A stretch of 10,903 bases of DNA from Nostoc sp. DedSLP01 (GTDB lineage: Bacteria > Cyanobacteriota > Cyanobacteriia > Cyanobacteriales > Nostocaceae), in contig JAVRCJ020000081.1 in assembly GCA_034530875.2 (NCBI GenBank), positions 1 to 10,903 on the forward strand, written 5' to 3'. Positions 1-10,891 of this stretch are shown piece by piece (position 1 is the stretch's first letter; each line of letters starts with the position of its first letter). A model generated the notes under the pieces. The model was not told the DNA's origin. It saw nothing but the letters and a program-made list of their open reading frames with translations, and did not search any database. The translations under genes were made by a program, and so were the position numbers.

Positions 1-250
1 TACTATGACTCTACCATCAATGAGCGATCGCTCAACCTCCCTGAGACACGCGAGCTAACTTTTTTAGTAAGCATGTACTATATTTAGATGCGTTCGCCCT
101 GTGGCAATCTCTGGCAGGCGAGTCATTTTTTAGTACAATTATGCAACTCGATCTAGCTTAAAATCCACTCCCACTCATCCACTGTCTCTTGAGATTTTCT
201 TTACGAATCAGCTCTTAATTGGTGTGTTGTGTTGGAATCTAGAATCGCTT

Positions 251-478
251 TTAGTGCGTAAATCTGTCCACTAACTCTTCACGAGATAATGAAAGACACA
301 AAGGAGTAAATTCTTCTGGAGATAACTGTAGTAAACCATTAACAACTGTTGCTAGTTCACCATCCACTTCCCCAAACCGAAATCGCAACAGATTTTCTAC
401 AACTTGGCGGCGTTCTTGTTGCACACCCTCTTGTACAGCAGCAGCCCTGGCTTCTTCATAAGCTTGAGTTAAGTTCAT
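251..478 (-). CDS. Putative internally initiated small C-terminal protein (RpnS-like, 75 aa, MNLTQAYEE...)
   Basis: In-frame ATG at 478-476, preceded by GAGGAG (490-485 on the minus strand) with a 6-nt spacer, at the boundary of the C-terminal helical domain. Confidence 0.5.
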   Translation of the reverse strand: MNLTQAYEEARAAAVQEGVQQERRQVVENLLRFRFGEVDGELATVVNGLLQLSPEEFTPLCLSLSREELVDRFTH

Positions 479-1141
479 AATTAGCTCCTCGTCATCTTGG
501 GTTAACTCTTGTTGTGCCATTACACTGATACGCCATCTGTAAATTATCTCCAGTACATTGCGACGTACAAGGTTTTCTCTTGGCAGTGCCACCAGTTCAC
601 TAACAGCTTGTTGCTGAACCTTTCGCCTGCCCAACAGCCGAAACCACAAGGTGTCTGGAGTTGAGGGTAGCTTGTTAATCGCAACTATTGCGGCTCTCTC
701 TCCTTCAGGTAGAAAATACACCCCATCAGGCCAATTGTCTAAATCTAGTTTAGCCCCAAAAGCTTTAAGCAGAGTTTGTGAGGCACTTGGTGACAAAATC
801 CACAGTCTTGCTAAGTCATTCTCTGCTATTGTTGTGTCCTCTCGATTAGCCTGACGTTGGGAATCAGCAATTACTGTGAACAATTTTTGAAGACAATTAC
901 GTACCTCAGAAAAACTAGGCTGATTGCGAAATGGTTCTAGCAGTGTCGTATTTAACAGAGCAATTCTGCCTAATAACCCTAAAGTTTTTGCCTCAGCAGT
1001 AGAGTTTGGTGTTGCAGAAAATAGAACATCAACAAACCTTGTTTCATCAGTAACTTCTTGATTTGTTCTTATTTCCCCCAAAGGGGACAGTAATTCTTTT
1101 AAAAACTGCTTGGCAAACTGGTCGTGAGGTTTAGTGGTCAT
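251..1141 (-). CDS. Rpn-like / PD-(D/E)XK nuclease-fold protein of a family widespread in cyanobacteria, 296 aa
   Basis: N-terminal HDQFAKQFLKELL, then a VDVLF...LLEPFR motif and a C-terminal helical tail (QEGVQQERRQVVENLLRFRFG...LSREEL). Family call is from motif recall, not a database search. Confidence 0.75.
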   Translation of the reverse strand: MTTKPHDQFAKQFLKELLSPLGEIRTNQEVTDETRFVDVLFSATPNSTAEAKTLGLLGRIALLNTTLLEPFRNQPSFSEVRNCLQKLFTVIADSQRQANREDTTIAENDLARLWILSPSASQTLLKAFGAKLDLDNWPDGVYFLPEGERAAIVAINKLPSTPDTLWFRLLGRRKVQQQAVSELVALPRENLVRRNVLEIIYRWRISVMAQQELTQDDEELIMNLTQAYEEARAAAVQEGVQQERRQVVENLLRFRFGEVDGELATVVNGLLQLSPEEFTPLCLSLSREELVDRFTH

Positions 1142-1331
1142 GCTTTAAGTGTGTGGTAAATGTATTTGTTATCTGGCGTAAAAGTCCTGTCGTTTATACG
1201 CGCACAATCGCTCTTATCAATCTAAGACAGCAGCCTCCAGCATCTTTTATCCTAATTTAGTAACCCATGCTGATTGCTGGAAATCCCAGCGTAAGGTAAT
1301 GTGTACTAATTCAGTAGTTGAAGTTGTGTTT

Positions 1332-1619
1332 ATGACATTTCAAGAGCTTCAAACAGGCGACTACTTCCGTATTCTGGGCATGACTATTGGTTACGTCTAC
1401 AGAAAAACCAGCGATGACTATTGCACGTTGAACAATACTTTGCAGCCGATTCGACCCCACACAAGAGTCAAAAAGCTAAGTGGGGATGAACTTATTGAAT
1501 ATTTGGCACAACAGACGACTGCTGCTGAACATAAGCCAAAACCTATAGTTAGGTTAAAATCCCGACCAGTTCCCTCAAGAGAAAAAGCAGGCATCACAAA
1601 ATATGGCATTATCAACTAA
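1332..1619 (+). CDS. Hypothetical protein (MTFQELQTGDYFRI...), about 95 aa; alternative start at 1299
   Basis: Open frame with protein-like composition; divergent from the Rpn-like gene and convergent with the next gene, overlapping it by 4 nt. Confidence 0.6.
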   Translation: MTFQELQTGDYFRILGMTIGYVYRKTSDDYCTLNNTLQPIRPHTRVKKLSGDELIEYLAQQTTAAEHKPKPIVRLKSRPVPSREKAGITKYGIIN

Positions 1620-1969
1620 TCGGTAGTTTCGTGTTTTAGGCAAGTGTTTGTTCTTTTAATGCTTGCCTTTTTCACATAAAAATTAGTAGCCTCACATCTA
1701 TCGACTAAAGCCTCACACAAATCAGCCGACTTCACTCCAAAAACCCCCAGCTGAATCTCACTAGTCAATCCATTGACGAGCGATTGATAATCGGGGTGAT
1801 TTTCGTTAATTTCTAGCTCTATCAAATCTGGGGTTTTTGATGTGATTGTTGCCCAATGGGGAAGATTGGAAGTAACACTCGTCAGGTAAAGTTTCACATT
1901 TACACCCTCTGATCGGTAGTAGTTTCTATAAACCGCTCGATACAGTCCATCGCCCAAATGCGTTTTCAT
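1616..1969 (-). CDS. Hypothetical protein, 117 aa
   Basis: ATG-started ORF with globular composition, co-oriented with the 2059-2586 gene. Confidence 0.55.
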   Translation of the reverse strand: MKTHLGDGLYRAVYRNYYRSEGVNVKLYLTSVTSNLPHWATITSKTPDLIELEINENHPDYQSLVNGLTSEIQLGVFGVKSADLCEALVDRCEATNFYVKKASIKRTNTCLKHETTD

Positions 1970-2058
1970 CTCAGGAGCAAATCATTGCGATTGGACAGTT
2001 CTAGCCATTGAGCATTAGTAGCGATCGCAGTAGATAAGCGATCGCCTTTTCCCTTAAA

Positions 2059-2586
2059 CTACGCAGCTATTGGCTCCTGCCCTGACTCGTACTCTAAGAG
2101 CATTTGCCATTCCTCTGGGGTTAATTCTCCAAAAGGTTTATCCAACAAATCGATAGAACTGCTTGGGATTTGTGGTTGATGAACTAGAGTTTGCACAAAG
2201 CAGGGTGTGCCGTCTTTGTAAACGATTTCCACTAGCCTAATGTTGTTAAAGTAAATGCCATCGTCTAGGAGTTCGTATCCCAAGCTCTCGCAGCCTAGAG
2301 CTATCTGACACATCATTTCATTCCCTGTTGTAGCGGCTGGGGTTTCTTCTTGTTGTACTGGCAACGTTCCTTGTTTGTAGTGCCATGTCACGTAGTTGTG
2401 GCACTTCATTTGTGCAATACCGCGAAACACTTCTTCACCGTTCACCATCACTACCCACCGTTGAGTTACGAAATCTGCACGGTCATAAGTGATTCGGGCG
2501 ATTAGCTTTTGTCCGGCGTAGAGTTCATGCTCGTAGAAGTCGATTTCTACTGATGTTACTTGCCCTGTTGTTGTTGCCTGTGGCAT
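2059..2586 (-). CDS. Hypothetical protein, probably plasmid-associated (MPQATTTGQVTSVEIDFYEHE...), 175 aa
   Basis: ATG at 2586 with GGAG upstream. The longer 2718 start runs through a hairpin and antisense to the rep remnant, so it is unlikely. Confidence 0.7.
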   Translation of the reverse strand: MPQATTTGQVTSVEIDFYEHELYAGQKLIARITYDRADFVTQRWVVMVNGEEVFRGIAQMKCHNYVTWHYKQGTLPVQQEETPAATTGNEMMCQIALGCESLGYELLDDGIYFNNIRLVEIVYKDGTPCFVQTLVHQPQIPSSSIDLLDKPFGELTPEEWQMLLEYESGQEPIAA

Positions 2587-2610
2587 GATAGTAATCTCCA
2601 TGAATTGGAT

Positions 2611-2654
2611 AAAAGGGCGATCGCTGAGTTTGCCAGACAGGGCGATCGCCTTTT
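2611..2654. promoter_or_regulatory. HIP1-anchored stem-loop in the leader of the 2059-2586 gene (terminator or attenuator-like)
   Basis: AAAAGGGCGATCGC-TGAGTTTGCCAGACAGG-GCGATCGCCTTTT; inverted arms followed by T4 on both strands. Confidence 0.45.
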
Positions 2655-3497
2655 GATTTGCACGAGAACGTTGTGACAAACCCCGACGAGATCCGCAGAA
2701 AATCCATAAATATATCAAATACGAACATCCTTACAGGGAGCAAACACGCGCTTTCTTTTTACAAGTCACCAAAAAGATTTGGGTGAAAGTGTCGAATCGT
2801 TGTGGTATTCCTATCACCGATGAAGATTTACAACATCCGGGTGGGTTCTGGCATTGGGTCTGGAAGAACAATGTACCAGTGGTGATTGTCGAAGGAGTTA
2901 AAAAGGCCGCTTGTTTATTGAGTGCTGGTTATGCGGCGATCGCCATCCCTGGGGTGAACGCTGGCTACCGCACACCAAAAGATGATTACAGGACTGTCAC
3001 GGGTAAACCTTCGCTCATTCCCGATCTAAAACATTTCGCAACGCAAGAAAGACTTGTTAACATTTGCTTTGATAACGATACCAAACCCGAAACCGTCCAA
3101 CGAGTACGCACTGCTATCAGCCGCATGGGGCGGCTGTTGAGAAACGAAGGTTGTCAGCTGCGCGTGATTGACCTACCAGGAACCGAAAAAGGAGTTGATG
3201 ATTTTGTCGTGGCTCAGAGTCAGGCTGCATTTCACGCTCTGTACAACACCGCCGAGACTTTGGAGTTGTGGGAAATCAAGCTGTTTACCCTGCTGATTTA
3301 TCCTCCGGCGATCGCACTCAACCACAGATTCCTGGGTGAGCTGATAGCACCAGAAGGTCAAAAGCTAATTGTTCTCAAAGCTCCTAAAGGCACGGGCAAG
3401 ACTGAATGGTTGTCTGCTGAGGTGAAGAAAGCTCATGACCAGGGGCGAAGGGTACTGATTATCACTCACCGTATTCAACTGGGTGAGGCACTGTGCG

Positions 3498-3521
3498 TTC
3501 GTCCTTGACGTTGGCGCAGCC
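3498..3521 (+). mobile_element. 24-nt SDR-like insertion in HIP1 (GCG^ATCGC)
   Basis: TTCGTCCTTGACGTTGGCGCAGCC lies between GCG (3495-3497) and ATCGC (3522-3526). Removing it restores HIP1 and the continuous reading GEALCDRFGVDY. Confidence 0.85.
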
Positions 3522-3970
3522 ATCGCTTCGGCGTTGATTATGTCAGCGAGATTCACACCTCTGACACAGGCGGTTTGTTGGGGTATGGTGTTTGCGTGGA
3601 TTCTTTGCACAAAGATAGCCAAGCTCGATTCAACCCCAACGACTGGTCAAATGATATCGTTATTATTGACGAATGCGACCAAGTGTTCTGGCATTTGCTC
3701 AACTCTACTACTGATGTGGCCAAGCGACGGGTGTCCATACTGAGAAATTTCAAGCAGTTGGTACAGAATGTTTTAGGCAGCGATCGCGGTAAAATCTACC
3801 TGTCTTCTGCCGACGTATCCGATACCGATGTCAAGTACATTTTGTCTCTGGCGGGAGAATACAAGGTTAATCCCTTTGTCATCGTCAACAATTATCAGCC
3901 CGTATCTGGCAAGTGCTACAACTATTCTGGCAGCAACCCCAAAAATTTGATTGCAGCGTTGGATAAAGTG

Positions 3971-4012
3971 TTAGCGTTCGCGGAGCGTCTCGTAGAGAAG
4001 CTTGCCGAAGGC
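3971..4012 (+). mobile_element. Nested pair of 21-nt SDR-like insertions (42 nt, in frame)
   Basis: Outer element TTAGCG^AAGCTTGCCGAAGGC sits in GTG^ATCGC (HIP1 with one mismatch). Inner element TTCGCGGAGCGTCTCGTAGAG (3977-3997) sits in GCG^AAGC. Together they add LAFAERLVEKLAEG to the replicase. Confidence 0.8.
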
Positions 4013-5301
4013 ATCGCATTGGGAGGACATCATTTATTATGTTGTTCTGCCCAAAAAGCCAAATCCAAATGGGGAACCCAAGCCCTTGAACAACGGTTTA
4101 AACAGAAATTTCCTCACCTGCGGATTCTGAGAATTGACAGTAATTCAGTTTTAGACCCAAAACACCCAGCTTTTGAATGTATCGCTGATCTCAACGAAAT
4201 TCTCACGCAGTATGATTTAGTAATAGCCTCACCTAGCCTTGAAACTGGTGTCTCCATTGATATCAAAGGTCATTTTGATGCAGTTTGGGGGATATTCCAG
4301 GGAGTACAGCCTGTGGACTCTGTACGGCAGATGTTGGCACGATTACGCCAAACAGTTGACCGTCACATCTGGGTGAGCCAGTACGGGATGGGGACTGTAG
4401 GCAATGGTTCAACTTCTATGGGTGGATTGTTACGGAGTCAGGATGTTGCAACACAAGCCAATATTGCTCTGTTGTCTGCGGCTGATAATGATGATTACTC
4501 GTTCATTGACCAGAACTTCCAGCCCGAATCATTGCAAACCTGGGGTAAGCGTGGGGCTGTCATCAACGTCGAGATGCGCCGCTATCAAGAATTTGTATTG
4601 AAGGGATTAGAAGCTGATGGCTACACGATTATTGATGCGGATGATTCTGACCCCGACCAAACCAAGGAAATTGTCAAGGAAGTGAAAGCCGCTTCCAAAG
4701 AATTATATGCTGGGGAATGCCAGGGGGTTTCTGAATCTGAAGATGTGTCTGATGCCGAACTCAAGAAATTGCAAGAAAAGCGGGTGAAGACTCCTGAGGA
4801 AAGATACCAGCAAGGGAAGGCTGAATTGTCCCGGCGTTATGAAGTTGAAGTGACACCCGAATTAGTAGAAAAGGACGATGACGGCTGGTATCCCCAATTG
4901 CGGCTGCACTATTATCTGACGGTGGGGCGGGAGTTCCTTGCCAATCGTGATGCCAAACGCGCCAAGGCACAGGCTGAGGCTGGGGAGAATGCGATTTGGA
5001 AGCCTGACTTTAACAAAGGGCAGATGATGTCTTGTATGTTGTTGTTGGAAAAGGTTAATCTGTTGGACTTGCTAAAGCCAGGGGAGAAACTGCGCTCTTC
5101 GGATGAGCAGATGCAGGAGTTGAAGCTGGCAGCACTGGAGAATCGTTATCTCATCAAGACTTGTTTGAATGTGACCGTTACCGAGAAGTTAACACCTGTT
5201 GCGATCGCACAAAAGCTTTTGAACAAGATTGATTTGCGGTTGTCCTACATTGGTCGATTGGGGTCGTTAAGCTAGGATAAGACATCGTTCATACCATTTC
5301 A

Positions 5302-6696
5302 CTATGCCCTGTTTGCCAAAGTGCTGTAAGAGAAAGAGCTATCTGCAAAGATAAATTTCTCAAAGCCAGTGATAGAAAAGCTAATGGGGTTTCCATTGCT
5401 GTTGAAAGTAAAAGTTGCACAATTAAGAGTATTGCCAGAAATAACACCAGATACCAGCAGTTGCGAGCGATTAAAAGCTGTGAGGTCGAGAGTGTCAAAA
5501 CCGTACCCGCCATCAACACTAGCAACGCCAAACCCTTTGAAGTAGTCATCCCCAGTACCTAAATCAATGTTGATGCCGCCACCAATAGAGACTTGTTGTT
5601 GAACTCCATCTAGGATACCGGTAGCGATAATTTGATCGTTGCCATCGTCAGTCTTGATGATTCCTTGTCCATAAATACCGTAGACAAGACCATCATTGTT
5701 GTAAGCATCAGTTGCTATAGCCTGTCCGATAACCTTGTCAGAACCCTTGCCTGTATCAATGACTCCATCGTTGAAGATGCCATAAGTGGTGGAGTTGGCT
5801 CGCGAACTGTTGCCATTACCTGTAATCGTGTCCTTGCCCGTCCATGTAGTGATGGTGGCGCCTTTAACGTTCTGGATGCCGATCCCAGCACCACCGTAAC
5901 CCTCGAACCCGCCTTTGGGGGCGGTGCCGCCATTACCCGTGCCAGCGATCGCGTCGTTTCCGCCACCTGTATCCAGTTCGCCATTGTTAGCGATGCCTAT
6001 GCCAGTACCGCCATTGCCGCCCTTGCCAAGGAGGGGAATGTATTTGTCGCTGTTTGTGTCCCCACCATAGCCGCCGTTGCCGCCATCACCACTACCAGCG
6101 ATCGCGTCGTTTCCTTCCCCTGTATTCAGTTCGCCATTGTTAGCAATACCTGTGCCGTTACCACCGTTACCACCATTGCCACCATTGCCACCATTGCCAC
6201 CATCACCACTAGCACCGATCGCCTCGTTTCCGTCCCCTGTATTCAGTTCGCCATTGTTAGCGATACCTATGCCGTTACCACCATTGCCACCATTGCCACC
6301 GACACCGCCGTTGCCGCCATCACCACTAGCACCGATCGCCTCATTTCCGTCCCCTGTATTGAGTTTGCCACTGTTAGCGATGCCTGTGCCACTACCACCG
6401 TTGCCACCCTTGCCACCATTACCGATATCGCTGCCTTTGCCGCCATCACCAATAGCACCGATCGCATCGCTTCCGTTCCCTGTATTCAGTTTGCCCCTGT
6501 TAGCGATGCCTGTGCCACTACCACCGTCGTTGCCAGTACTGATACCAGTGAGCGTGTCTTTTCCTGAAAGTGTAAGGACGTAACCTCCAATTAAAATATC
6601 AATACCAATTGCTGGAGATGCATTCAGCTCTTCCCCAACTAGAGTATCGGAACCGAGGGTACCGATGAAATTCGATGGAATACGAAGTCTTGCCAT
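5302..6696 (-). CDS. Gly/Asn-rich repeat protein, RTX or hemolysin-type Ca-binding-like, probably secreted or surface-located, 464 aa
   Basis: Repeated TG(D/E/N)GND/EAI, GKDT, GNDQ, GDDY and GGYGFDTLDL motifs; GGNGGNGG tracts; C-terminal TGFEKFIFAD; no obvious signal peptide. ATG at 6696 preferred over the TTG at 6711. Confidence 0.8.
   Translation of the reverse strand: MARLRIPSNFIGTLGSDTLVGEELNASPAIGIDILIGGYVLTLSGKDTLTGISTGNDGGSGTGIANRGKLNTGNGSDAIGAIGDGGKGSDIGNGGKGGNGGSGTGIANSGKLNTGDGNEAIGASGDGGNGGVGGNGGNGGNGIGIANNGELNTGDGNEAIGASGDGGNGGNGGNGGNGGNGTGIANNGELNTGEGNDAIAGSGDGGNGGYGGDTNSDKYIPLLGKGGNGGTGIGIANNGELDTGGGNDAIAGTGNGGTAPKGGFEGYGGAGIGIQNVKGATITTWTGKDTITGNGNSSRANSTTYGIFNDGVIDTGKGSDKVIGQAIATDAYNNDGLVYGIYGQGIIKTDDGNDQIIATGILDGVQQQVSIGGGINIDLGTGDDYFKGFGVASVDGGYGFDTLDLTAFNRSQLLVSGVISGNTLNCATFTFNSNGNPISFSITGFEKFIFADSSFSYSTLANRA
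5930..6545 (-). repeat. Five in-frame tandem repeat units in the Gly-rich gene, with internal 9-nt GGN microrepeats
   Basis: A TGTAT(T/C)(C/G)AGT anchor recurs at 5968, 6121, 6238, 6355 and 6481 (spacings 153, 117, 117, 126). Unit: GIANxGxL(N/D)TGxGx(D/E)AIxxxGxGG. Confidence 0.9.
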
Positions 6697-7072
6697 AAAG
6701 CAAATTCTCAAAAGTTAGTTTGGTACGGGTGGCTTGCTCATTTGGTTGAGCAGTTTCTCAAAAAATCTCGAAATTGTTTCTCCAAAAGCTATTGAGCGAT
6801 TGAGTTTATTCTTGTATCACTCACCTAGTAGTCTGCCAAGACAACGAAAGCATCGTGGAAGGCAGGGGTGGTAGAGGAGGAAAAAGCGCACGGAACTTGA
6901 GGTCAGAAGGGATAAGAATACTGTTAACCATTCGGCTTCTTGAGGTTTGATGATGAGCGAACTTGTATTGAGCTTTGTCGAAGTAGTAGAACCGTCAACA
7001 AATACTGTGGGACACACAGAAATTCAAGCTTATGGAGAAGCAGTAAGACTCGTTGGTACTTATGCCAAAAAG

Positions 7073-7121
7073 AGGCAGTGACGGGTACGCAGGAGTCTCC
7101 CCAAGTAGAGCAACTGCCGTG
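7073..7121. repeat. About 49-nt hairpin insertion (GGCAGT...ACTGCC) in the tnpB tail
   Basis: Inverted GGCAGT (7074-7079) and ACTGCC (7113-7118); it carries the TGA that ends the tail frame. It resembles a dispersed Nostoc repeat from memory; boundaries are approximate. Confidence 0.4.
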
Positions 7122-7159
7122 CGTGTTTCAACAGAAACAAGAATCTCCGCTACATTGCG

Positions 7160-7180
7160 TTCGCGGAGCGTTCCGAAGGA
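7160..7180 (+). mobile_element. 21-nt SDR-like insertion in GCG^AAGC
   Basis: TTCGCGGAGCGTTCCGAAGGA shares its first 12 nt with the copy at 3977-3997. Removing it leaves the perfect hairpin TACATTGC-GAA-GCAATGTA. Confidence 0.8.
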
Positions 7181-7205
7181 AAGCAATGTAAGGGGGAAGT
7201 CTCAA

Positions 7206-7530
7206 ATGCAATCTTGGGCATCTCTACAGCGAGTTGTGCAGCAGTAGAAAGCAAGTTTTGCAATGCCTCAGCTATAGCTACAGTTGAAGTAGTTACCCCA
7301 ATAGCAGTTTCTTCTAATGCTTTCCCCACATTTTGTACAGCTTGAAAACCTTGCTGTGCTGTTGCGGGCAAATCAGTAATTGCATTAAGACTTGAGGTGG
7401 CAATTTCTAGAGTAGTATTTTTGATTCCATCAACTACTTCTTCTATGCCGATTGCTGTATTATTTGCCCCTTCTTGAGCATTTTCCCTAAGAGTATCTGC
7501 TAAACTTCGTACTTGATTGATGAAATCCAT
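7206..7530 (-). pseudogene. Ala/Thr-rich helical hypothetical protein, probably 3'-truncated at the IS605 right end
   Basis: ORF MDFINQVRSLAD...AVEMPKIA reads directly into the IS end at 7205. Its last residues (FETSPLHC...) are antisense IS and SDR sequence. Confidence 0.55.
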
Positions 7531-7830
7531 GTTGTAGTAGACGCTTATGTTTAATATTTAGTATTTAGTCCAGCTTTTTACCCATACTTCAGAACCATAT
7601 CACGATAGCTCGTAAGCTTTATAAAAAAATCTTTAAAGAGATAGTAAGCGATTTATAGCTTGATGATGTGGTAAAAGAAAAACTAAACTATGAAGTTAGT
7701 TTAGCTGTTTTATTAACGATTTAAAAAACTTTTTATTAATGCAGCAATCAGCATTATATAAGCCATTTCTTAGCTTTTTTATCCTGTATTTGAATTGAAC
7801 GAAGAAAGCGATCGCTGCTCATTAAACAGT

Positions 7831-7992
7831 TCAATCTGTATTGGGCGTTTCTCCAGTTGGTAAAGAACGGATTAGCTCTCGAATCACATCGGTTGCTGGT
7901 CTTCCCGTCATTGAGCAGTATTTTTCTAATATTTCTGCTTCGCCTGATGTCAGATTTATTGTTATTCGTTTAATAGCCCATTTCTTATTCAT
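7831..7992 (-). CDS. CopG/ribbon-helix-helix transcriptional regulator, 53 aa (not in the ORF track)
   Basis: MNKKWAIKRITINLTSGEAEILEKYCSMTGRPATDVIRELIRSLPTGETPNTD: alternating beta strand RITINL, a helix, a G-R-P turn and a DVIRELI helix. Confidence 0.8.
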   Translation of the reverse strand: MNKKWAIKRITINLTSGEAEILEKYCSMTGRPATDVIRELIRSLPTGETPNTD

Positions 7993-8260
7993 TGATTTAA
8001 TTAACTCTACTTCAAACTACTTCTTTACTATCAATCACTCAAACTGTTATTGCAATGATAAAAGTAATGATATTAGCCTCAAGATGTTGTGAAGAGAATG
8101 CTGCTAAGTTTGAAGCCGTAGTGAAGAGTTTAAATACAGTTAAAATTATGAAGTTTAATTAATTTGTAAGCAACAATTATAAAGAAAACAGATTCTTCCA
8201 CTTGTTTGGTACTAAATCTACTTAGTTATTTTAGTTTTTTATTGCCCCTACTGATTCGCG

Positions 8261-8284
8261 TTCGCCCTGGACGTTGGTGCAGTC
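8261..8284 (+). mobile_element. Degenerate copy of the 24-nt SDR-like element in a HIP1-like site (GCG^ATCAC)
   Basis: TTCGCCCTGGACGTTGGTGCAGTC matches 3498-3521 at 20 of 24 positions, with equivalent flanks. Confidence 0.75.
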
Positions 8285-8356
8285 ATCACATTTTAAATTT
8301 TGCCCATCAGCCTTAATATACACCTCTCTTTTTTTATCAATGCGTAAGTTCTAATA

Positions 8357-9477
8357 AGTAGGTCAACCTAATTAAACATAAAACGTTCAACTTGGTACTG
8401 ACCTTGCACGCCTCTATTTTCTATACTCTCAATAATAGCGATCGCTAATTCATATTCATCCTCAAAAACTCGGCCGGCAAGCTGATCGCGTTTGAGATGC
8501 AACCATTCGTCTTCAATGCGATTCATTTGTGGGCTATAAGGAGGTAGAAAAAAAATGTACAACCCTTGCTGTTGCCAACGTTGATGCTGCTGGCGAGCTA
8601 AAAGACTTTTATGAACAGAGGCATTATCGTGAATGATGACGGTAATTTGTCCAGTTAACAATAAGTGGTGTGCAGCAATTTGAGCAAGACACTCCATGAG
8701 TTGGACATAGGTTGGTGCTTTCAATGTTCCAAGCATCAAAGCGTAATCAAAGCTAACTTTCGGCTCCCAAATACCGAAGATGTCGATCCGCCTACCCCGT
8801 CGTCTATTTTGTCGAATACGTTTTTGCTCTCCCCTACGCCCATAAGTGTAATCAGTGGGACTAGTGCAGTAACAACCAGATTCATCCAAGTACTTTAAAC
8901 AAACCAATCCTAATTTTGCCCATAGCTTGAGTAATTCCCAATCTTGGCGTTTAGCTTTTAAATATCCTGCATTCAGATTTAAAGCCGGACAGTAGCGACT
9001 ACGTTTCCAATACCACCCCTTTTTTTGAGTAGTCGCCTGATTTGTTCGGCTCCTAGTTCGATTTGTCGTTCCTCAAATAGTTTTTGACTTAGCTGCCGAG
9101 CACTGTAACGACGATTTTGTTCCAAGCATTCTTCTACTACTTGCCAATCAACTTCATGCCAAGTTCTCTTTTTTCCACGTCCTGGCGCTTCCCACAAACC
9201 TCCTAACCCTTGAAATTGCCAGCGTTTTATTGTCTGTCTGACCGTTTGTTGTGCCCAACCTAAATACTTTGGAATCTGAGGTACATTCCATCCGTGGGCA
9301 TTGAGGCGCAAAGCGATCGCTCTAAGTTTGGTTCGATGTGGTACTTTATCTGCACAACTGAGTTCAAAAAGTGTCAGGTCTTCTTCAGTAGTTAGTATTA
9401 TTCTTAACGCACTAGGCATCATTTATCACTTAATTTATGCAATCTATCTATCTTACGTTTTTTTTGGTTGACCTACT
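8357..9477 (-). mobile_element. IS630-family insertion sequence, 1121 bp
   Basis: Perfect 12-bp TIR AGTAGGTCAACC (8357-8368 and 9466-9477), extending imperfectly to about 27 bp; flanking TA at 8355-8356 and 9478-9479. Confidence 0.92.
8368..9422 (-). CDS. IS630 transposase, expressed via -1 frameshift (HTH ORF A 9422-8979 plus DDE ORF B)
   Basis: A7 followed by GGGG at 9026-9016 (minus strand). The -1 frame is open as KGWYWKRSRYCP...KYLDESG. Catalytic motifs DESG, DNAS and YSPQMNRIE are present. Confidence 0.9.
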
Positions 9478-9513
9478 TAGTTGTAAAAACTTTAAAGTTA
9501 AACAATTTTCTCC

Positions 9514-9804
9514 ATGCGCTCGTTACTCTTTCAAAACTTAAAGCTGACTATTCATACAGCTTTATTATTTACGGTTCTTGGCTATATTCTAAGTCTATTT
9601 CTGAGTTTTCTTACCAATCCACAAGCAGCAAGATGGCAATTCCATCTAGAATTCGGGCCTGAACCCCGAAACCTTCATGAGCTTGCGATTTTTCAAGCTC
9701 AGGCAGCATTCGCAGGTACAACGCTCGGAATTCTAATAGCTCAAACAGCTTTTTTTGTATATGTAAGTAAATTTGGACTCAGCAATCGTAGCACTAAGCA
9801 GTAA
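9514..9804 (+). CDS. Small membrane protein, 96 aa, two predicted hydrophobic segments
   Basis: ATG start; hydrophobic stretches ALLFTVLGYILSLFLSFL and AAFAGTTLGILIAQTAFFVYV. Confidence 0.55.
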   Translation: MRSLLFQNLKLTIHTALLFTVLGYILSLFLSFLTNPQAARWQFHLEFGPEPRNLHELAIFQAQAAFAGTTLGILIAQTAFFVYVSKFGLSNRSTKQ

Positions 9805-9815
9805 TCGTAAGCGAT

Positions 9816-9843
9816 GTCACTCGAGAAGCCGCTTGCGCGTCTA
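9816..9843 (-). mobile_element. 28-nt SDR-like insertion splitting a HIP1 site
   Basis: Minus strand reads GCG^TAGACGCGCAAGCGGCTTCTCGAGTGAC^ATCGC and contains a CGC-GCAA-GCG hairpin. Confidence 0.6.
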
Positions 9844-9967
9844 CGCCATCTGCAACATCCGCAATTCAACACTCACGTTCCCCCTGCCGTTGCCATATAC
9901 TGTCTTGAGAACAGCGAATGCTACAGCAGGAACAGTGGTTGGATTGCTATTGGTAAAGCCAATGCAT

Positions 9968-10243
9968 TTATGGCGCTACTTTTTCTTTAAACTGTTTCCC
10001 AGCAGAAAACGCAGGCACTTTGGTCGCCGGAATTGTCATTGGCTCATTGGTTTTCGGATTACGCCCTTCACGTTCTGAGCGATCGCGCCGCTCGAATGAG
10101 CCAAACCCAACTAGCGTTACCTTATCCCCATTCGCTACAGCCTCGGTAACGACTTCTAAAAAAGCTGATATCACCTCCAATGCTTCCTTTTTTGTGATGT
10201 TGGTCTTTGCTGCTACAGCATCCACTAATTCACCTTTATTCAT
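9968..10243 (-). CDS. hup: HU family DNA-binding protein, 91 aa
   Basis: MNKGELVDAVA...VTLVGFGSFE...REGRNPKT...IPATKVPAFSAGK, the canonical HU signature. Confidence 0.97.
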   Translation of the reverse strand: MNKGELVDAVAAKTNITKKEALEVISAFLEVVTEAVANGDKVTLVGFGSFERRDRSEREGRNPKTNEPMTIPATKVPAFSAGKQFKEKVAP

Positions 10244-10870
10244 AAATTACTCCGAAGTATTACAAGTATTGGAAATCTAGCATCAGTAACTCTTGTTAGC
10301 AAAGGGGGAAAAGGAATCAAAATCAAAAATGTAATACTACTACAAATTCTTTTGAGTTTTATCAATTCCTGTACTCTTTGGCACAAAGGGCAAAAACATC
10401 GTTACGGCAGATATTAGTGCTTGGTTCTTTGTGGGTGCGGCGGCAGAGAATCGTGCTGGCCATGTCTAGTGGGGTAGTGTATACGGGCTTGAGGGGAAGC
10501 AGTGGAATTACCAGAGATGATGCGGGGGTTTCTCCACAATCAGTAATGCCAATTCTTTAAAATTCAATAGATCGAAAACTTTTGTAAGTTGACGAAATAA
10601 TCAGCGTTTCAACCGAGGTTTTGGGGCTGACGATCGCGAACGCTTGCACTCCACTCTTAACCCAATACACTTGGTGTTAAGGAAATTTATCTGTTTAGGC
10701 AGGCTGTTCTTGAGCAGGGGAAGCTCTTGAGGCAGGGGGAGAGAAAAAGGCTTATCTGAACCGTATTGACTCTTAACCCACCAACAACGATCGCTCCGCG
10801 ATCGAGACTTGTCTAAGCAAATTTTTGGCGTTGCTGAATCCAAGTATGAATCATGCGATCGCCTCAAGCT

Positions 10871-10891
10871 TGCGGGCGCGTAGCGCCCGCA
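10871..10891. other. GC-rich perfect hairpin with a GTA triloop
   Basis: TGCGGGCGC-GTA-GCGCCCGCA, a 9-bp stem starting 8 nt after the HIP1 at 10855-10862. Confidence 0.6.

Follow-up and report, generated by a model that had tools for sequence, protein, structure and literature searches.

Twin mini-hairpin inserts of Nostoc, very probably SDR elements, may each replace a single target adenine

The closest described relatives of the elements treated here are the SDR repeats of cyanobacteria. Elhai et al. (2008) reportedly described SDR4-6 in Nostoc punctiforme as repeats of 21-27 nt that share a fold with compensatory changes, nest in one another and have heptamer hosts. Herein, we analyze a stretch of 10,903 nucleotides from Nostoc sp. 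DedSLP01 (hereafter, the window) that carries six short inserts with a twin-hairpin fold; the window is the entire contig C81, part of an 8.57-Mb genome with 7,591 HIP1 sites. According to the passages of two later papers that cite it, SDR5 is an element of Nostocaceae that enters HIP1 between its bases 3 and 4 (PMC4390886, PMC5861425); the passages of PMC3116915 and PMC3733652 only cite the 2008 SDR paper. We have little doubt that the window elements belong to the published SDR group of Nostoc; SDR4/5 is most likely the specific group, and matching SDR numbers to the classes used below is a guess. Our overall interpretation, to which we would give an even chance, sees in the inserts mobile non-coding repeats, likely of the Nostoc SDR4/SDR5 group, which travel as a folded single strand of DNA, about 22 bases long, and replace one A at (C/T)G-A.

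All six inserts named in the preliminary description of the window are present. The first (3498-3521, plus strand) measures 24 nt, or 25 nt if A3522 is the element's own, and splits a HIP1 octamer after its third base (site 3495-3526). It forms an exact 24-nt indel relative to eight of eight aligned homologs, one of which (L002) retains an intact HIP1, and its subtype counts 10 copies in the genome. The next two form a nested pair at 3971-4012 on the plus strand. An outer HIP1-class element (3971-3976 and 3998-4012), lying in a near-HIP1 site with GTG as the left half, holds in its GAA loop 1 an inner loop-class element (3977-3997; 22 nt if A3998 is its own). The outer element is common to homologs L002 and L003 and missing from six more distant ones. 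As for the inner insert, it occupies loop 1 in the window, whereas a different inner insert occupies loop 2 in L002 and L003, and the six other homologs have neither; thus, two independent nesting events took place in different loops of one outer element. Exact empty alleles were therefore seen in orthologs of both sites, and the exactness of these indels bears out the claim that no target duplication accompanies insertion.

Both sites lie in the gene of a CyRepA1-family plasmid primase-helicase (DUF3854; 2783-5275, plus strand), eight aligned homologs of which served as the reference for empty alleles. Alignment with the homologs gives a single open frame of 808 codons once the inserts are omitted. 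Insert 3498-3521 splits the gene, the reading frame stopping at 3508 through an in-frame TGA that the insert brings, and the nested pair is carried in frame. Window regions 188-6144 and 6498-10699 are each spanned by a single contig of the likely source sequencing runs with zero differences; hence, the inserts are not an assembly artefact. The other three inserts are a loop-class variant (7160-7180, plus strand; two genome copies) in the GAA loop of a perfect 8-bp hairpin at about 7151-7190; a degenerate member of the 24-nt HIP1 subtype, located at a near-HIP1 site (8261-8284, plus strand) and recognized by its similarity to 3498-3521; and a degenerate 28-nt copy (9816-9843), which runs on the minus strand and represents a family of longer HIP1-splitting elements, with a lengthened first stem and 11 pattern matches in the genome. 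No empty allele of these three sites was present among the sequences compared; all three inserts belong to multi-copy subfamilies.

A strict twin-hairpin grammar, of the kind that the preliminary description had suggested scanning for, retrieved 117 copies from the genome, whereas three shuffles yielded 1, 3 and 7, so the fold is not a product of chance. By the conventional boundary, 93 of these copies are 21 nt long and 14 are 24 nt long. Reversed-pattern controls for the loop-class search gave 0 matches. Covariation was followed in 128 HIP1-class copies from other genomes, with stem letters left free within purine and pyrimidine classes. In stem 2, the middle pair was C-G in 57 copies, T-A in 69 and T-G in two, and the outer pairs of this stem were matched in 122 and 123 of the 128; all G-T variants of HIP1-class stems were singletons. 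In the loop class, on our reading, 148 of the 150 matches listed have stem 1 in one or the other of two paired forms. The compensatory changes predicted from the four best-preserved window copies are thus found well beyond the window. So are the GNA triloops: with loops left free, loop 2 read GNA in 48/50 and 38/39 copies and loop 1 in 41/50 and 30/39, the loop-closing pair being C-G in 48 of 53. One structural detail did not survive. The second stem had been described as closed by the first A of the right target half, yet the position that should pair with this A is C in 125 of the 128 HIP1-class copies, so a T-A closing pair is not required.

The four relaxed-pattern matches in the window, out of 132, compare with approximately 0.17 expected from its length. 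Such matches are denser on small contigs (21 in 0.54 Mb versus 83 in 6.09 Mb), and the richness of small contigs may partly be an assembly effect. The HIP1-class pattern was found in 34 of 37 other Nostocaceae genomes and sporadically outside the family, with 56 of 301 genomes positive in a phylum-wide sample and matches falling mainly in Nostoc-named records; the loop class was present in 97 of 151 Nostocaceae genomes. Viral contigs gave four matches to the element pattern, and Rfam gave none for the elements. Turnover was judged from 32 HIP1-class copies at loci of close relatives, chiefly G462, which is 94% identical over pyrH-frr. At these loci, our strain was empty in 14 cases, shared the copy in 3, was unclear in 2 and had no ortholog in 13; the ratio of empty to shared sites indicates fast turnover. 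Among 12 HIP1-class comparisons listed, six show a clean 21-nt difference from an uninterrupted HIP1 core. It might be objected that the elements are not independently mobile and spread by gene conversion or slippage within larger repeats, given that many copies lie within heptamer arrays, REPs and composite repeats. However, exact indels also occur in unique sequence and in coding genes, and independent nestings occupy two loops of one host. The empty alleles at unique sites largely refute passive spread, which we regard as very improbable.

Inside open reading frames (ORFs), antisense copies exceed sense copies 26:12, probably owing to selection against stop codons. We also observed nested elements in long housekeeping-like ORFs (L379 714-1637, L373 1346-3046 and L392 1335-3046), including one resembling shikimate dehydrogenase, where the insert is read in frame, and one resembling gyrase/topoisomerase A.

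Each class has its own target. HIP1-class elements insert by a CG-ATCG split, and loop-class elements by a CG-AAG split, often inside a GAA loop that belongs to a REP or to another element. Around loop-class inserts, the next two flanking positions pair in 20/25 and 17/25 contexts in this genome and more weakly in other genomes (14/28 and 11/28). Across 127 Nostoc genomes, 176 cases of nesting in loop 2 were counted and 116 in loop 1, the latter in 69 of the genomes; in all rows listed for either loop, an A follows the element. Among free copies of the commonest host haplotype, 97 have A as the loop base and 6,733 have one of the other three. Among 150 host copies listed, 28 were loop-filled, with a GCC:GTC stem ratio of 20:8. 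Free GAA haplotypes show 69:28, unlike other haplotypes (40:110 among 150 listed from five genomes), and both orthologs that match at 60/60 carry A. Since the stems of filled hosts match those of GAA copies and not the others, the loop class takes GAA loops only, approximately a fifth of which are filled. Indiscriminate overwriting of GNA loops by the loop class was considered and rejected, as the stem make-up of filled hosts fits GAA-only targeting. The scarcity of GAA loops is plausibly the outcome of loop-class insertion, and if so, this class would be a parasite of other elements, having driven GAA loops out of them. Recurrent composites of 70-110 bases, made of three or four nested elements (for example, at 222676-222747 of contig C1 of this genome, G000), may move as units.

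What happens to the target base is best seen in two sister families. Family T begins with T, terminates in a hairpin followed by T and uses three unrelated hosts: a heptamer, a REP and the loop-class junction. Free hosts read A at the family T junction (heptamer, 187 versus 0 TA; loop class, 26 versus 0). In filled hosts, T replaces A in 46 of 48 copies, and the remaining two are boundary miscalls in which the T is present too. None of the 22 REP copies listed had an empty T allele, and A stands immediately after the hairpin in only two of 150 heptamer rows listed. In an orthologous pair, the REP behind frr is empty with A in our strain and filled with T in G470; near-identical empty alleles of family T carry A in 11 of 11 cases. 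At locus L205, the second target base, G, is retained, and therefore, a single base is replaced. An explanation of family T as a 5-bp duplication in heptamer arrays was also tried and fails in the REP and loop-class hosts. Two genomes, G282 and G390, have 45 and 68 family T matches in heptamer arrays yet none to the loop class; the families thus expand independently of one another. Family S has its first half in common with the window classes and ends with C at the hairpin foot. Of its 48 copies, 40 best fit a lost A, three a clean insertion and five are undecided, while one likely orthologous pair in non-tandem sequence displays the loss of A directly. With the last base counted, the commonest form is 22 nt in each of families T and S, the loop class and the short HIP1 class. 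Overall, we are confident that the target A is lost on insertion in families T and S. By analogy, A is probably lost in the window's families as well, where the final A would be the element's own and the exchange with the target A would be hidden.

Host repair might produce the same result: the element would first be attached to the G by one end, through strand transfer or by ligation where the target is nicked or has lost a base, after which the 5' nuclease of Pol I or base excision would remove the A, and ligase would seal the other end. Such a scenario accounts for the loss of one base whatever the last base of the element (C, T or A), needs core enzymes only and fits the lack of a linked gene among 515 neighboring ORFs. 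On its own, however, it leaves family-specific targets and the exact-ended release of a donor unexplained, and it sits poorly with the very high precision of the junction, where exactly one A was found in 150 of 150 copies listed. One copy in N. punctiforme PCC 73102 (1 of 141) has an extra A, which could reflect either an exceptional insertion in which no base was lost or subsequent slippage. We hold completion by host repair to be unlikely.

The loss of a target base also bears on the enzymes that the preliminary description had put forward. Its reading of a mobile, non-autonomous, structure-defined and SDR-like system stands, and its single-stranded intermediate is an inference that we share; its HUH/Y1 candidate fits poorly. 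In classical HUH peel-and-paste by RAYT or IS200/IS605 TnpA, a small single-stranded circle would enter one phosphodiester bond. Strand-specific hairpins and the lack of duplication agree with this route, and TnpA-REP is retargetable to GA and GT sites (PMC8266576). The genome also contains a RAYT gene (contig C33; L022 1290-2120), located between GTAG REPs, one of which has a loop-class insert in its loop. However, peel-and-paste consists of a single cut and rejoin (PMC6006769, PMC8266576), which keeps all target bases, whereas one base is missing after insertion of families T and S; this speaks against plain single-cut insertion by an HUH enzyme. A strong match to the local RAYT (L022) occurs in 16 of 37 genomes rich in the elements and in 60 of 113 others (p 0.35), that is, without association. 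Y1 transposases match in four of five rich genomes and not in G249, which is 99% complete and has 57 loop-class copies. Nor was an autonomous partner with the same ends seen among the matches listed for our own genome. At least 44 left halves are orphans there, and among the matches listed, four with a right half 0.6-6.8 kb away proved to be degenerate or further-interrupted single elements. Taken together, we consider the HUH route quite improbable.

Reverse transcriptases were the third group compared for co-occurrence, and like RAYT, they do not track element copy number. An RNA-based scenario would have a reverse transcriptase copy a processed short RNA at nicks offset by one base, yielding a 1-bp target deletion. 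Target-site deletion is a known outcome of target-primed reverse transcription in R2 elements, which counts for this scenario, as does the spread of reverse transcriptases (141 of 151 Nostocaceae genomes, with two in this genome). Against it, the copy number of the elements is unrelated to the count of reverse transcriptases (rho 0.04 among the 37 rich genomes), and G079 has 13 loop-class copies and no reverse transcriptase match. Between genes that run in the same direction, the elements show no preference for the sense orientation (16:10 and 11:11). Their loops are C-GNA-G triloops, and no G-U lineages have been amplified. C-GNA-G mini-hairpins are stabler in DNA than in RNA, exonuclease-resistant and poorly bound by single-strand-binding protein (PMC13037366). 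An RNA intermediate seems to us improbable, though less so than host repair or HUH transfer, and a DNA intermediate is the likelier form. One of the reverse transcriptases of this genome (contig C5, 360474-362277; 600 aa) has a weak RVT_1 match and is unlike the group II intron-like one on contig C12.

Other searches for an enzyme were likewise negative. No enzyme gene lies near the window inserts. Clustering of 515 ORFs near 445 elements, based on leading residues only, gave kinases, transporters and housekeeping proteins and no recurrent mobile enzyme, and by eye, the 18 densest hairpin clusters shared no flanking gene. The single GIY-YIG match falls within a 659-aa frame and is probably UvrC. 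Since mobile enzymes come and go, these nulls weaken RAYT, Y1 transposases and reverse transcriptases as candidates.

We can picture the exchange of a folded single strand for a target A as follows. On transiently single-stranded DNA, two C-GNA-G mini-hairpins would fold, bring the ends of the element together and shield the short strand. A trans-acting single-strand transferase, probably host-encoded or domesticated, would cut the donor at both element ends, and the same predicted enzyme would cut the target on either side of the A. The target G would then be joined to the first T of the element and the last base of the element to the base past the A, which would be lost; this outcome is observed in families T and S and, by analogy, is presumed for the A-ending families of the window. 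The sequence would grow by a net 21 or 24 bases, without duplication and with the reading frame preserved. From the family-specific targets seen above (HIP1 for one family, GAA triloops for another), mutual nesting follows. The parent copy would be retained through replication of the untouched donor strand. It is tempting to suppose that one enzyme swaps a single-strand adenine for a folded 22-base DNA cassette at family-specific targets, which would be an undescribed DNA-editing chemistry; we advance this tentatively, at somewhat less than an even chance.

Several points weigh against this interpretation. Elhai is said to have favored RNA intermediates. The window families end in A, so replacement is indistinguishable from simple insertion in them, and the rule is taken from families T and S by analogy; family T, whose first hairpin is different, may use another route. 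Three loop-class contexts have T in the best empty allele, two of them in a multi-allele repeat. No enzyme was found for the movement, and the assembled contigs, the only material searched, showed neither a free intermediate nor an excision joint at the inserts. ViennaRNA with DNA parameters prefers the GNA strand to its complement in only 25 of 70 cases, and energy folding failed to separate DNA from RNA for the element hairpins. Nor was a replication-strand bias, such as the lagging-strand orientation of IS200/IS605 derivatives would produce, seen in G222 or G452: counted from dnaA, the first half of G222 holds 26 plus-strand and 24 minus-strand copies, and none is apparent by eye in G452, but the replichores of Nostoc may be poorly defined. 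An apparent strand switch in G462 near 3.9 Mb was discarded as a post hoc pick, being off dnaA (1.77 Mb) and absent in G222 and G452.

Beyond the inserts and the replication gene, protein comparison of the window revealed an IS630 element and HU, and contig C81, judging from its sequence, is plasmid-like. A 469-aa Gly/Asn-rich repeat protein without a Pfam match (5302-6711, minus strand) lies directly at the end of the replication gene. A 296-aa ORF (251-1141, minus strand), with no match in Pfam or NCBIfam, resembles cyanobacterial Rpn-like PD-(D/E)XK proteins. At 10790-10806, two overlapping HIP1-like halves flank a 3-base loop, forming a minus-strand GGA mini-hairpin that is possibly half an element. 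A 9-bp hairpin with a GTA loop (10869-10889) is part of 77 bases that the contig end shares without change with contig C34 and that are probably the end of a larger repeat.

The movement of SDR elements appears to have been an open question since 2008, and a literature search covering few subscription journals found no later work on its mechanism. The junction rule narrows the question to a testable substrate: approximately 22 nt, with T as the first base, ending at a C-GNA-G hairpin and replacing the A of (C/T)G-A. The elements add 7-8 residues to proteins and sometimes disrupt genes, as at 3498; an enzyme of the proposed kind, if it exists, would offer a precise, frame-preserving tool for micro-insertion. 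If the single-enzyme reading is true, an element starting with A would appear as a central HIP1 insertion, merging two HIP1 registers of different cyanobacteria.

Compared with known systems, the elements resemble REP/REPIN with RAYT and IS200/IS605 in their strand-specific hairpin DNA, lack of target duplication and non-autonomous spread. Unlike REPs, they have neither a GTAG foot before a single long stem nor a flanked transposase gene, and they do not co-occur with RAYT; their sister families lose a target base, and REPs serve as their hosts. Families T and S depart from the IS200/IS605 mode, in which all target bases are kept, while A-ending window elements are indistinguishable in this respect. 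R2-type target-primed retroelements, as generally known, share sequence-specific insertion with target-base loss and differ in that our elements are 22 nt long, with no ORF, DNA-type loops and no linked reverse transcriptase. Miniature inverted-repeat transposable elements mobilized by DDE enzymes are marked by terminal inverted repeats and a target-site duplication, whereas the indels here are exact and without one. The d(GCGNAGC) DNA mini-hairpins share C-GNA-G loops and stems of 2-4 bp (PMC13037366) and are a structural motif rather than a mobile system. The SDR group is the closest: the HIP1-class inserts of the window and its relatives sit between HIP1 bases 3 and 4 and occur in Nostocaceae, so the suggested link to published families holds for SDR5 as far as the citing passages go. 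A near-identical nested pair is found on plasmid pNPUN03 of N. punctiforme PCC 73102. The size, covarying shared fold, nesting and heptamer hosts agree with what is reportedly known of SDR4-6, and nothing was seen to differ in kind. The elements are thus already known in kind, and what our analysis adds is the junction rule and the targeting of GAA loops.

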